From: a virus
Lineage: Duplodnaviria; Caudoviricetes
Reading direction: 5' to 3' (one strand)
DNA: 64,000 bases
Virus record (IMG/VR): IMGVR_UViG_3300033070_001518
Span: 16,412-80,411 of that record
Shown here: positions 24,788 to 59,162 of the stretch, one piece after another
Position numbering within the stretch: the stretch's first letter is position 1
How the letters are laid out: each line of letters opens with the position of its first letter
The notes under the pieces: generated by a model
The model's input: the letters and a program-made list of their open reading frames with translations, nothing else
Databases searched by the model: none
What the model was told of the DNA's origin: nothing
Made by a program: the position numbers and the translations under genes

Positions 24788-25234
24788 ATGATTAGAAATT
24801 GGAAACTCTTCTTAGACTCTACCAATTCAGATTTTGATCTAGCCAAAGATATATTTACAGAACTAGAGGATGAATTTGGATTATCAATTGATTATGATAA
24901 TCGAATCGATGATGAGATGTCTTGTGTTATGACTTTATTTGGAGAATTAGAGATGGGTAATAATACTGAATTTACTAATTTTCTTTGCCTTCTATGTCAT
25001 AAAGTTACAGAATTAACAAACTATATATGTCATTTTCAATTAACATTTCATTCCTCAGATATGAATATTCCGATGAGATATAGATCTAAGTTTGTTAGTT
25101 TTGATGGTGATAATTTATCACAATCTCGTACCTCGGATATAGGATATAGTTATTTTCTAGATGATGATTCGAGAAAAAAATTAAATACCGATATCTTCAA
25201 AAGGGGAACTATTTGGTTGTATATCACAGAATGA
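24788..25234 (+). CDS. Putative internal virion protein (CTS-like leader family)
   Basis: MIRNWKLFLDS...KDIFTELEDEFG; TATATA-N4-ATG upstream. Confidence 0.6.
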   Translation: MIRNWKLFLDSTNSDFDLAKDIFTELEDEFGLSIDYDNRIDDEMSCVMTLFGELEMGNNTEFTNFLCLLCHKVTELTNYICHFQLTFHSSDMNIPMRYRSKFVSFDGDNLSQSRTSDIGYSYFLDDDSRKKLNTDIFKRGTIWLYITE

Positions 25235-25704
25235 TCAAAAATTGGAAATTGTTCTTGGAGTCATCTAACCTGGATTTAGAGGACTTAGACATTATTAAAG
25301 AGATACTAATTGATCTAGATGATGATTTTGGTCTTGATGTTGAATATGATGTAAAAATTGATGGGTGTATTATTAATATCCATGGTAAATTGAATGGAAG
25401 TAGAAATAATGAAATAATCTATTGTGTTAATTCATTGTGTAAAAAAATTCAAGAATTTGTAAATAGCTCTTATGAGGTTCAATTTGGATTTGGGGATTTG
25501 GGGGTGGGAAATCGTCTTTATGTTATGTATGGGCCAAGATCGTCATATACAAATGATATCCAAAGTAAAATTCCAGATAGTTTAGAAGATAAAATAATGT
25601 ATCAATGGATAGTAGATGGTGTTGATGTGTATCGAGAAATCCCACCACAAGATTTGGATGATCGAGAATTTAGATATTGTTATATTTGGATATATAAAAA
25701 TTAA
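25231..25704 (+). CDS. Putative internal virion protein (CTS-like leader family)
   Basis: Start reassigned to ATG 25231, which overlaps the upstream stop: MIKNWKLFLES...KEILIDLDDDFG, a tandem paralog. Confidence 0.6.
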   Translation: MIKNWKLFLESSNLDLEDLDIIKEILIDLDDDFGLDVEYDVKIDGCIINIHGKLNGSRNNEIIYCVNSLCKKIQEFVNSSYEVQFGFGDLGVGNRLYVMYGPRSSYTNDIQSKIPDSLEDKIMYQWIVDGVDVYREIPPQDLDDREFRYCYIWIYKN

Positions 25705-25796
25705 TTTGGAGTTATTTCTTTTTAGGAACATCTCCAAGAAAAAATCTGGATTCTTTTTAGCCTCACATAGTCAAGTCCATTTTAATATATATTAAA

Positions 25797-25991
25797 ATGG
25801 ATATAAAGAATTGGAATCTTTATTTAGAATCTAGTAATGAATTAAATTTGGTAAAGGACATACTTACTGAGATTGAGGATAGTTTTGAAATTTCAATTGA
25901 GTATGATGTTAGTGATGTAAATTGGTTTCTTATCGCCGATATCAATAATATGAGTGTTGATTCATCTAAAAATGATGATATGGTTAAATAA
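25797..25991 (+). CDS. Short/truncated third paralog of the 24788/25231 family
   Basis: MDIKNWNLYLES...KDILTEIEDSF; 64 aa versus ~150 aa for its neighbours. Confidence 0.55.
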   Translation: MDIKNWNLYLESSNELNLVKDILTEIEDSFEISIEYDVSDVNWFLIADINNMSVDSSKNDDMVK

Positions 25992-55981: not shown

Positions 55982-56037
55982 GACAATTATAAACAAAGAT
56001 TTAATATTGGTGTATAAACTAAAAAGTAATCTTATAC

Positions 56038-57279
56038 ATGGCTGTTAAATTAATCTTAACTCAGATAATGAAAAATGAATCTCATGTGGCTCACCGCATG
56101 TTGAATTCAATAAAACCAATAATTGATGGTATTGTTGTAATAGATACTGGATCAACCGATGGATCTGTTGAGATAGTTAGAAAGTGGGGTTTAGATAATG
56201 GAGTGGAAACATATGTTTTTGAAAGACCATTTGATGATTTTCAGAAATCGAGAGATTTTTCATTTGAAAAAGCTAGAGAAATATTTTTGGGTAAAAAGGA
56301 TGGTCACACGTATCATAATTTTTGGTTAGATTTTGATGAGACAATAGAAGTTCTTCCTAATTTTAATAAAAATAAAATAGATAAGGATCTATATATGTTC
56401 AATACATATATAAATTCTATGAAGTATACGAGAAATGAAATGTGTAGATTGGATAAGCCATTTAAATGGTATGGTCCGGTTCATGAATTTATTATATCTG
56501 ATGAAAAAAATATAACATCCGGATTACTAGAAGGATTGAATGTTAGAGTTCAGATGGATGGTGGATCTTGGAAGGGCAATATTCCCGAAAAGTATTTATC
56601 ACATGCTCATAAATTGGAAGAATATATAAATAGAGATAGGAAGGATCCTAGGTGGATTTTTTATACTGCGCAATCTTACCATGATTCTGCTTGTGTTCCG
56701 AATACAGGAACATCTATTATTTTACCAAATGCTCGAGAAGAAAACGAGGAAAGGCTTAGAAGAAGTCTTAAATATTACAAAGAAAGGACTGCTAGACCAG
56801 ATGGATATTTTGAGGAAATATTTTATGCTCAATTTCGAATTGGGACTATAATGAAAGTAATGGAGAAACCATGGAATCTATGCCTTAATGAGTTAATGAA
56901 AGCATATTCAGCTGATCCTTTGCGTGGAGAACCCATAAAGGCCATTATTGATTACTATTTAATGGTTGGTGAATTTAATAATGCGTATTTATTTTCTAAA
57001 TTCGCTAAAATAAATTATCACCAAAAAAATCCATATCCACAGAGACTATTATTCGTTGATGAAAGTTTATATGCTTGGAGATTCTTGGAAGTCCACGCGG
57101 CATCTAGCTTTTATACAAATCGGAAAGAAGAGGCGAAGCAAAGCTTTTTAGAAATGGTTAAGATATCTAAAGAAAATCCACATTTATTTACACCAGATGA
57201 TCTCAAAAAGATTGAGATGAATACTAATGCTTTTACAAAAGTCCCTGGTCCTGCTCATCAACTTGTACCTGCTAAATGA
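56038..57279 (+). CDS. GT2 + TPR glycosyltransferase (paralog of 29842-30945)
   Basis: MKNESH, DTGSTDGS, F.DF..SR, LDFDE, W.GPVHE, FYTAQSY plus helical repeats. Confidence 0.88.
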   Translation: MAVKLILTQIMKNESHVAHRMLNSIKPIIDGIVVIDTGSTDGSVEIVRKWGLDNGVETYVFERPFDDFQKSRDFSFEKAREIFLGKKDGHTYHNFWLDFDETIEVLPNFNKNKIDKDLYMFNTYINSMKYTRNEMCRLDKPFKWYGPVHEFIISDEKNITSGLLEGLNVRVQMDGGSWKGNIPEKYLSHAHKLEEYINRDRKDPRWIFYTAQSYHDSACVPNTGTSIILPNAREENEERLRRSLKYYKERTARPDGYFEEIFYAQFRIGTIMKVMEKPWNLCLNELMKAYSADPLRGEPIKAIIDYYLMVGEFNNAYLFSKFAKINYHQKNPYPQRLLFVDESLYAWRFLEVHAASSFYTNRKEEAKQSFLEMVKISKENPHLFTPDDLKKIEMNTNAFTKVPGPAHQLVPAK

Positions 57280-58064
57280 GGAGGATAGTAAAATCAAACC
57301 TTGATAAATTTTATACAAAGTCTGAGGTGGCTAAGAGACTCATCAGTAATATCGATTTTCAAAATTATGATTTAGCTGTTGATCCTTGTTGTGGAGACGG
57401 TGCTTTTTTTTCAAATATTAAAATTGATAAAATAGGTATTGATATCCAGCCTGATATAGATGGTGTTATTTGTCATGATTTTTTGACTTGGAATTTTTCT
57501 CAATTGAAAATAGATAGATCTAAAATCATTGTTATATCCAATCCACCTTTTGGTAAACAGGGTTCATTGGCTATGAAATTTATAAAAAGAAGTGCGGAAT
57601 TCAGTGATACTATTGCTTTCATTTTACCAATTAGCTTTGCAAAAAATAGCGTCAAAAATAGAATACCACATTTCTACCATTTAGAATATGAAGAGATAAT
57701 TCCTGATAATTCTTTTCTAATGAATGGTATTGATTATAAAGTAAAATGCGTTTTCCAAATTTGGAAAAGAAGAGATATTGAGAGGTCTATAATAGTTGAT
57801 GAATTAGAAGAAGGATTCCAATACACTAAGAAAAAGGAAAATGCGGACATATCAATTAGACGTGTTGGATTTTATGCTGGAAAGTCTTGGAGAGATACGA
57901 ACAAATCTGATCAATCTCATTATTTTATAGTCTTAGATGACAAATCTAAAGTTGATCTTTTGATTGAATATTTAAATTCTTTTAGTTGGAACAATGACCT
58001 TACTGTCGGTCCTCGATCCATATCAAAGGGGGAGATAAACTCCGTTATTAATTCATTCCTCTGA
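57276..58064 (+). CDS. Gamma-class amino (N6-A) DNA methyltransferase
   Basis: DKFYT, VDPCCGDGAF, GIDI.P, DFL, NPPFG, FILP. Confidence 0.9.
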   Translation: MRRIVKSNLDKFYTKSEVAKRLISNIDFQNYDLAVDPCCGDGAFFSNIKIDKIGIDIQPDIDGVICHDFLTWNFSQLKIDRSKIIVISNPPFGKQGSLAMKFIKRSAEFSDTIAFILPISFAKNSVKNRIPHFYHLEYEEIIPDNSFLMNGIDYKVKCVFQIWKRRDIERSIIVDELEEGFQYTKKKENADISIRRVGFYAGKSWRDTNKSDQSHYFIVLDDKSKVDLLIEYLNSFSWNNDLTVGPRSISKGEINSVINSFL

Positions 58065-59162
58065 TTCTGGAACGTATTGAATTCTTATGTGTTCATTTTT
58101 TAGTATTTCTGACATGAAGTCATTATAATTAATAGCTCCTTGGATTCTTAGTTGTCCCTTCGTATCTCTTTTGAATCTTATTTTTATCTCGCTTGTTTCG
58201 AATATATCTATATACTCTTGCCTATATGATAACCAATTCGATTCAGTTTCTTCTGTTCTCTCCCCCTTGAGTCTGAATTTAGAGAGATCTTTGTACATAT
58301 TTTCTATTCTTGCAAATATTTCTGGATTATTTATGTCTGGGAGATATAATTTCCATTTCCAAACAGGCATCAAAATTAAATATTCTAAATTTACTTTTTT
58401 ATCCCCATCATGAAATCCCACGACTAGCATAAATTTGTCAATTTTATCTTGAACCATTTCAAGTTCTCCATCTTTAAAAATAAGACCAGAAATTCTCTTA
58501 AAATCACCCATATCAATACTAGATTTTGTTTTGGAACATTTTATGTTCCAAAACATATTCAATTTGAATTCATTGCTCAACATGTCCCAATTTATGTGTT
58601 CTATTTTATCTTCATCCACAGATACTATGGATTTATAATCAGTACCATTGAAATATTGAATATTAGATGGGAGTCTAGATTCTAAATAAAATTTATCCAA
58701 ATTTCCTTCAGCGTCCCATTTTCCAGTTTGGATGAGCTTTTTTAATTTATTCATTCTTTTAACTTCTCCCTCATACGCAAATCCATGCGTTTGTCGAGCT
58801 CTTTTTGTTGAACTAGAATTCTTTTCAAATACATATAGATATAATTCTTTTCCATCTACCTCTAATTTGGATTCTTCTATCATATATCCCCTATGATCTT
58901 TAACTTCATCATTGAAGTATATTTTATTTTTGATATCCTTAGATGATTTTCTTAATCTGAATAATTTTGGAACATCATCGATCGGAACAATGGAAACAAA
59001 CATAGCGTGAGCTAATGAATCAAATTTATAAGTGGACATCCATTTTTTTATTTGGAATGGTGAGTATATACCATACTCAAAAAGATCGTCAATTCTAAAT
59101 TTTCTTTGGAATATATATAGCTTTTTCTCAAGAATAAATTTAGAGTAGTTTTTTAAATTCAT
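58053..59162 (-). CDS. Putative PD-(D/E)xK restriction-like endonuclease with CTS-like leader
   Basis: QTHGFAYE...KWDA...WNIK...SIDMGD..RI...RFKRD...Q.RIQGAI; MNLKNYSKFILEKK; convergent with and overlapping the MTase. Confidence 0.6.
   Translation of the reverse strand: MNLKNYSKFILEKKLYIFQRKFRIDDLFEYGIYSPFQIKKWMSTYKFDSLAHAMFVSIVPIDDVPKLFRLRKSSKDIKNKIYFNDEVKDHRGYMIEESKLEVDGKELYLYVFEKNSSSTKRARQTHGFAYEGEVKRMNKLKKLIQTGKWDAEGNLDKFYLESRLPSNIQYFNGTDYKSIVSVDEDKIEHINWDMLSNEFKLNMFWNIKCSKTKSSIDMGDFKRISGLIFKDGELEMVQDKIDKFMLVVGFHDGDKKVNLEYLILMPVWKWKLYLPDINNPEIFARIENMYKDLSKFRLKGERTEETESNWLSYRQEYIDIFETSEIKIRFKRDTKGQLRIQGAINYNDFMSEILKNEHIRIQYVPESEE

Follow-up and report, generated by a model that had tools for sequence, protein, structure and literature searches.

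A recurrent N-terminal leader resembling the T4 capsid targeting sequence in an uncultured phage, and its possible use in loading proteins into the head

Why should an RNA ligase, an HNH-domain protein, a TPM-domain protein and a number of small proteins begin with much the same ten or so residues? The question is raised by a stretch of viral DNA of 64,000 nucleotides (the window), bases 16412-80411 of the 80,411-bp IMG/VR virus record IMGVR_UViG_3300033070_001518, in which a first-pass annotation had seen at least 14 proteins with an N-terminal leader similar to the capsid targeting sequence (CTS) of bacteriophage T4 internal proteins. Our analysis of this record and of its relatives leads us to favour, with moderate confidence and from sequence comparison, the view that the leader is a T4-type propeptide for capsid targeting and cleavage, employed on a very large scale, and it suggests that dozens of proteins may be loaded into the capsids of the largest known phages. 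The relative used most below, G003 (385,333 bp, fetched whole), has its gene order in common with the window in the region of the RNA ligase and adjacent genes.

All 14 of the quoted N-termini translate exactly, in position and in strand. The leader opens with Met and one to three residues that are for the most part basic or aliphatic, then has an aromatic residue, two positions of any kind, a second aromatic residue, Ile, Leu or Val, any residue and Glu, often followed by Ser, and a second, shorter class ends F/Y-x-E. Leaders are 9-13 residues long, with the Glu at residues 8-13 in those scored; among 58 distinct leaders of the clade, the pattern's first aromatic residue is one of residues 3-8. 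As had been claimed, MITYNEFILE (33545) is identical at 7 of 10 positions to the T4 leader MKTYQEFIAE, which we read twice in the T4 genome. A pattern taken from this T4 sequence only, [FYW]xx[FYW][ILV]xE, is present among the first 16 residues in 6 proteins encoded by the 80-kb record (5 in the window), compared with a mean of 0.17 and a maximum of 2 in 500 shuffles; in the G003 proteome it is found 62 times where 21 are expected, and at N-termini 21 times where 0.41 are expected, with several of the other internal matches being leaders behind mis-called starts. The residue equivalent to T4 Glu6, which the pattern does not demand, is Gln, Glu or Asp in 39 of the 58 distinct leaders. With a position-specific scoring matrix (PSSM) trained on G003 only, 10 of the 14 quoted N-termini reach our threshold score of 6, as do 0.7% of internal Met-started windows. 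A scan of the whole record with our own list of open reading frames (ORFs) adds seven further proteins with a leader, all in the 16 kb upstream of the window, and one extra candidate within it (41088-41273). Could such likeness arise by chance from an AT-rich composition, with its codons for Lys, Ile, Asn, Phe, Tyr and Glu? The GC content of the window is ~30%, and a loose leader definition that we also applied lets in false positives (DnaJ, dCMP deaminase and a cold-shock protein). However, residue-by-residue shuffles give 35- to 50-fold fewer N-terminal matches, and with the low rate at which internal windows reach the PSSM threshold this explanation is largely excluded and its probability negligible. 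The first-pass annotation had also reasoned that a motif equally frequent in the glycan operon would speak against a tag, and even by the loose definition it is found in just 1 of the 23 genes of that island versus 10 of the 52 genes in 24.7-64 kb.

The leader is conserved at the level of the protein. The conserved residues are encoded by a variety of synonymous codons (TTT/TTC, GAA/GAG, four for Leu, and TCN or AGY for Ser), which argues for selection on the peptide and not on the DNA, and all five window-G003 ortholog pairs, 34-46% identical, keep the motif while their other leader residues differ. For the 180-aa protein at 40493-41035, full-length similarity gave us 91 homologs, of which 51 were aligned. 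All 51 have an aromatic residue at positions 6 and 9, Ile, Leu or Val at position 10 and Glu at position 12, while any residue is tolerated at positions 7 and 11 and Asp, Glu or Gln predominate at position 8. The conserved positions (aromatic, aromatic, I/L/V, Glu) correspond to residues 4, 7, 8 and 10 of the T4 CTS, with the same spacing and shifted by two residues in this family. In T4 IPIII the first 10 residues suffice for incorporation, the chief determinants of targeting are residues 4 and 7 (Tyr4 and Phe7) and those of processing residues 8 and 10, and Asp at position 10 of the CTS stops processing but not targeting (PMC9026906). Similarly, T4 gp22 begins with a CTS-like ...LIAE (T4 genome). 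An AlphaFold2 model of the 180-aa protein, which has no significant fold match, shows the leader as a short low-confidence helix, then a low-confidence break at 11-14 and a long helix from residue 18. As a separate matter, G003 orthologs were found for 5/21 leader genes and 30/82 other genes, which gives no support to a faster turnover of leader genes.

A different account would place the cause of this likeness in gene expression. An [AT]ATATATA box lies 4-5 nt before the ATG of most leader genes of the 80-kb record, which has ~23 such sites, and A-rich stretches without Shine-Dalgarno sequences precede gene starts in the record. The gap between box and ATG has no room for a 5' leader, and the box is probably a phage promoter that yields leaderless or near-leaderless mRNAs, plausibly a late one. 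The start at 33545 stands directly behind such a box, and an alternative ATG at 33509 lies upstream of it. The N-terminal peptide could then be a by-product of near-leaderless late mRNAs, its first codons or the nascent chain being selected for initiation in an AT-rich host that lacks Shine-Dalgarno sequences. This would fit with the AT-rich codons of the first residues (M-K/I-...-K) and with the association of leader and box (taken as ATATATA-N3-6-ATG), since in G003 a leader by the loose definition is present in 34 of 65 box genes compared with 60 of 391 others (odds ratio 6, p = 5e-10), and in the 80-kb record the association has p = 0.0013. It does not fit with the synonymous variation described above, where Ser comes from two codon families, nor with conserved positions that fall at residues 4-13 and not at 2-4. 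Moreover, 31 of the 65 box genes in G003 have no leader, including structural genes (tail fiber, baseplate wedge) as well as genes for a homing endonuclease and a subunit of topoisomerase II, the box is missing from about half of the genes with a leader, and the motif recurs inside a protease of the relatives, far from any start codon. We therefore judge an origin in expression to be very unlikely.

The view of the leader as a portable tag on unrelated cargo was borne out. Pfam identifies an RNA ligase 1 (Rnl1), an HNH-domain protein and a TPM-domain protein in the window (Table 1), of which Rnl1 also matches PDB 2c5u (E = 7e-26) and comes just under the cut-off for PF20819 (24.6 bits, cut-off 27). 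Residue 31 of this ligase aligns to residue 12 of T4 Rnl1, so that the leader, with a short linker, is an N-terminal addition of ~19 residues. Of the nucleases that had been named among the cargo only one, the HNH protein (55424), is borne out; the 369-aa protein at 58053-59162 has no match in Pfam or Atlas. In G003 the cargo includes a PolyA_pol-head (CCA-adding-type) nucleotidyltransferase, ankyrin repeats, a PQ-loop protein and a weak methyltransferase match, and most of it has no family. It could be argued that the tagged proteins are plain paralogs that have kept a common N-terminus, which would then have no function of its own as a tag. The paralog family described by the first-pass annotation is indeed present (24788, 25231 and 25797 by BLASTP), inspection of the sequences suggests that 27030 and 36788 are probably further diverged members of it, and several other small acidic proteins likewise have, on inspection, a common downstream acidic motif. 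However, BLASTP detects no similarity among the remaining leader proteins, the Pfam families of the cargo are unrelated in both window and G003, and in Rnl1 the leader extends the protein beyond its T4 counterpart, all of which makes common descent of whole proteins a highly improbable explanation.

It is in relatives that the motif meets head assembly. The head module of G003 is of T4 type, with a portal (phrog_213), a 712-aa maturation protease and a gp23-like capsid protein. The protease matches phrog_207 over residues 5-250 (E = 3.5e-31) and is 27% identical to T4 gp21, with His72 and Ser127 in the columns of T4 His85 and Ser140, which we take to be the catalytic residues of gp21; the match to PF03420 (Peptidase S77) is under the 27-bit cut-off in G003 (22.3 bits) and above it in a distant 411-kb relative, G002 (37.3 bits). 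At residues ~285-430 the G003 protein has about ten tandem 14-residue units containing YSEYIAE, which is identical to T4 YQEFIAE at 5 of 7 positions and has Tyr for Phe at a sixth, and these are followed by a Glu-rich acidic block and a C-terminal domain. With 10 of 41 it holds the most internal matches to the T4-derived pattern of any G003 protein; only that pattern singles out the repeats among internal matches, whereas a matrix built from mixed long and short leaders does not. The repeat is present in 9-12 copies in every one of 80 orthologs of the protease from other contigs. At least 80 contigs thus conserve the fusion, as do LR745206 and LR756502, whose proteases are 82-83% identical to that of G003 (tblastn); in G002 the repeats have an equivalent, and members of a paralog family carry leaders like these. 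A tblastn search with the G003 protease matched 686 phage records, mostly T4-like cyanophages, and in 350-kb Yersinia and Erwinia phages the match covers both a gp21-type prohead core gene and the adjoining gene (a scaffolding protein in one Erwinia record), for which reason the G003 protein looks like a protease-scaffold fusion. The capsid protein of G003 matches T4 gp23 in PDB (E = 5e-4) and phrog_138. T4 gp23 is cut after Glu65, and within the conserved N-terminus of the G003 protein S-I-N-E/N stands two residues before a block that resembles, by eye only, the mature T4 gp23 start; a PDB search with the N-terminal 130 residues gave no match. We note separately that a peptidase-like family with a PGLY(Y/L)FF(I/L)GEE motif is found at L065:9105-10454 (-) and in three G003 paralogs (starts 93111, 158637 and 268370), its head-module copy (phrog_4191) adjoining the capsid gene between two leader proteins.

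From these observations we propose that the amphipathic leader mimics the 14-residue repeat of the scaffold-like C-terminal extension of the protease, and that tagged proteins would for this reason assemble together with the core of the prohead. Next, the gp21-like protease would cut after the leader Glu, as it would at the scaffold repeats and the capsid propeptide, and free the cargo inside the head, from which at least part of it may exit with the DNA by analogy with the internal proteins of T4 and with Alt. The protein at 24788, whose leader has Asp as its last residue, would on this reading undergo targeting but escape the cut. The main competitor of capsid targeting is a real peptide tag with some other purpose, such as binding by the phage DnaK/DnaJ, delivery to a membrane assembly site or a switch for regulated proteolysis, in which case the likeness to the protease repeats would reflect mere helical, coiled-coil-like character. 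DnaK and DnaJ are indeed phage-encoded and two tagged proteins seem to be membrane or exported proteins. Against such a tag, the four conserved positions and their spacing equal the mutationally defined determinants of the T4 CTS, the predicted P1 residue, for a protease family that is specific for Glu, is Glu without exception, and a matching site stands at the expected maturation point of the capsid protein. Further, no transmembrane (TM)-like segment overlaps any leader and the first ~25 residues contain no Sec/Tat-type hydrophobic h-region, so the leaders are not signal peptides. We consider a non-capsid tag unlikely, although it is the rival to which several of the points below would also lend support.

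A number of observations weigh against a role in capsid targeting. Some ~12-15% of all ORFs are tagged (59-65 of 456 in G003, by the definition used), which is far above T4 and a very large load for one head. The count of at least 14 leaders held for the ten that reach the PSSM standard; in the other four 24788 has its Asp, 36788 and 41527 score ~0 and 53322 has no Glu at positions 8-14, so that three of the 14 are weak. T4 IPII and IPIII are basic, whereas the leader proteins are mostly acidic, with a median isoelectric point of 5.3. The TPM protein of the window, with a signal-peptide-like stretch and two TM-like segments, is the poorest fit as capsid cargo, and the G003 PQ-loop protein has a Tat-like stretch and three TM-like segments. 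Leader proteins as a set are nevertheless depleted in TM-like segments (1/59 in G003 versus 37/456 of all its ORFs), which speaks for capsid targeting. The two membrane-like proteins are not decisive, since SPN3US has a processed ejection protein, gp47, with a propeptide and then a TM helix. The ten repeat matches amount to about one independent coincidence, if a rather detailed one, because one unit has been duplicated in tandem. We tried and rejected homology of the protease extension to T4 gp22, as the BLASTP similarity is significant only without composition correction and vanishes with it, and we therefore term the region scaffold-like and not gp22-homologous. The earlier idea of a T4-type system stands in that the CTS positions are matched and the protease, scaffold-like region and capsid protein of relatives carry the motif, but no protease or capsid gene was found in the 80-kb record, itself a fragment, so that the link to head assembly rests on the syntenic G003 and on LR745206. 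Finally, we infer core binding, cleavage, packaging and injection by analogy with T4.

Table 1. Features discussed in the text. Coordinates refer to the window unless otherwise given; a slash follows the last leader residue.
Feature	Coordinates	Strand	Remarks
148-aa leader protein, small paralog family	24788-25234	+	Last leader position Asp (LFLD/S), not Glu
157-aa leader protein, paralog of 24788	25231-25704	+	Leader ends LFLE/S; PSSM 12.5
64-aa leader protein, short paralog of 24788	25797-25991	+	PSSM 9.6; ATATATA-N5-ATG upstream
180-aa leader protein, short class	27030-27572	+	F-N-E/S at residues 6-9; PSSM 10.3; no Pfam match
408-aa protein, most T4-like leader	33545-34771	+	MITYNEFILE, 7/10 identical to IPII/IPIII; motif kept in G003 ortholog
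164-aa protein, weak leader match	36788-37282	+	PSSM -0.3
T4-type RNA ligase 1 with leader	38401-39600	-	PF09511, 67.6 bits (cut-off 28.3); leader kept in G001 and G003 orthologs
180-aa leader protein, fold unassigned	40493-41035	-	51-member family alignment
61-aa ORF, extra leader-like candidate	41088-41273	+	PSSM 11.6; no promoter box
177-aa protein, weak leader match	41527-42060	+	PSSM -0.4
138-aa protein, moderate leader then hydrophobic stretch	42037-42453	-	PSSM 6.1
230-aa leader protein	47505-48197	+	F-N-E/S at residues 9-12; PSSM 6.1
639-aa TPM-domain protein, atypical long leader	51403-53322	-	PF04536; PDB 7tbr; TM-like 290-308, 454-472
185-aa HNH-domain protein, strong leader	55424-55981	+	F-I-N-E/E; PF01844; PSSM 15.6
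369-aa protein, strong leader	58053-59162	-	PSSM 12.9
Prohead protease fused to scaffold-like region	L065:12744-14882 = G003 32744-34882	-	phrog_207
ATATATA box, examples	24775-24787, 27017-27029, 33532-33544, 47492-47504		
Head-tail adaptor-like structural gene	26205-26990	-	phrog_211; ATATATA-N4-ATG box, no leader; control and anchor gene for finding relatives
DnaJ and DnaK, phage-encoded	30942-36666	-	N-terminal signatures
C-terminal-motif proteins	41242-41493, 42469-42981, 46197-46484, 48216-48782, 60864-61187		Also two genes upstream of window

The relatives of the window phage are uncultured huge phages. Used as a query, the adaptor-like gene recovered 41 related contigs. A 46-kb contig, G001, is syntenic with the window and has its own set of leader proteins, and the two structural proteins compared are 84-87% identical. 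The DnaK region has 77% DNA identity to LR745206 (634,780 bp), a complete genome of 635 kb that has both this DnaK and a protease 83% identical to that of G003. Two paralogous large proteins of 905 and 611 aa, 33% identical, are encoded behind ATATATA boxes at 1-504 (continuing upstream) and 508-2343 (+); neither has a Pfam or PHROG family, and homologs of the 611-aa protein are found only in uncultured huge-phage genomes of 462-735 kb, with 31-39% identity in LR756502, LR745206, LR756501 and LR756504 (about 635-735 kb) and a partial match of 25% in LR756500. Several homing-endonuclease-like genes of relatives are also found behind ATATATA boxes. CheckV rates the 80-kb record as 31% complete, which implies a genome of ~260 kb. 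Searches with the G003 protease found no protease in G004-G008, contigs of 152-344 kb rated 52-91% complete, which probably do not include the head module; as relatives reach 635-735 kb, CheckV probably overestimates completeness in this clade, and the phage of the window may be far larger than ~260 kb. Freshwater Bacteroidetes are the predicted hosts of published huge phages of a similar kind (PMC9723584).

Judged by their N-termini, the record encodes a NusG-like protein, DnaK and DnaJ, and it also has a long glycan-synthesis island of 23 genes. Seven proteins of the record, none with an N-terminal leader, have a C-terminal motif R-x-x-K-[IL]-[DN]-x-[ILV], and the two tag classes are mutually exclusive here. 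A GIY-YIG (LEM-3-like) endonuclease gene (37338-38417, +; PF22945) adjoins the RNA ligase, and a collagen triple-helix repeat protein (62192-64000, +; PF01391, E = 9e-68) runs off the end of the window in a region of 42% GC, compared with ~30% elsewhere. ARAGORN detected no tRNA gene in the 64-kb window and Rfam at gathering thresholds returned nothing.

If the leader works as the CTS does in T4, sequence would be enough to predict the virion-internal proteins of uncultured huge phages, a class normally defined by purified particles and mass spectrometry, and some of the added genome content of the largest phages might encode delivered effectors, a natural pool of candidate anti-defence functions. 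The leader is also a possible packaging tag for engineering. The CTS-like scaffold repeats also offer a concrete idea of how the T4 CTS might recognise the prohead core. A more far-reaching proposal, which we put forward tentatively and hold to be doubtful as a whole, is that in the clade of the largest known phage genomes (635-735 kb, relatives of LR745206/LR756501) more than one tenth of the genes encode CTS-tagged cargo whose tag imitates the protease-scaffold 14-mer, and that this cargo would include nucleases and a preloaded tRNA-repair kit (Rnl1 in the window, the CCA-adding-type enzyme in G003), all brought in with the DNA to act before phage gene expression.

Full-text searches found no report of such a leader system in huge or jumbo phages, and the closest parallel is T4 itself. 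Similar to the T4 CTS, the leader is an N-terminal peptide of ~10 residues on unrelated, fast-changing cargo, and head genes of gp20, gp21 and gp23 type are present in the phage's relatives. It differs from T4 in scale, with ~15 tagged proteins in 80 kb and ~55-65 in 385 kb compared with a handful in T4, in its enzyme cargo (Rnl1, the HNH protein and, in G003, the CCA-adding-type nucleotidyltransferase), in the extra short class F/Y-x-E and the mostly Ser residue after the Glu, in the fusion of the protease to scaffold-like tandem CTS-like repeats, and in being a tag known from sequence alone; T4 can, however, package foreign enzymes by means of its CTS. The giant phages phiKZ, 201phi2-1 and SPN3US are similar in having a gp21-related protease that cuts after Glu and many processed virion-internal proteins; with 89 virion proteins, 19 of them processed, 201phi2-1 is a precedent for a virion of great complexity. 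Their propeptides, however, are mostly longer than 100 residues (roughly 80-130), have no common consensus and are cut at A/S/G-x-E, whereas the leaders here are 9-13 residues long, with a common consensus and I/L/F/Y at P3, and are not long propeptides of that kind. The polymorphic internal-protein loci of T-even phages likewise combine a conserved tag with hypervariable cargo, although they encode basic proteins at one locus, while the cargo here is mostly acidic, scattered in clusters and far more numerous. Lastly, the cargo-loading peptides of encapsulins have no homology to the leader and differ from it in being usually C-terminal, in binding the shell directly and in remaining uncleaved, but they too represent a short terminal peptide that sends unrelated enzymes into an HK97-fold shell.

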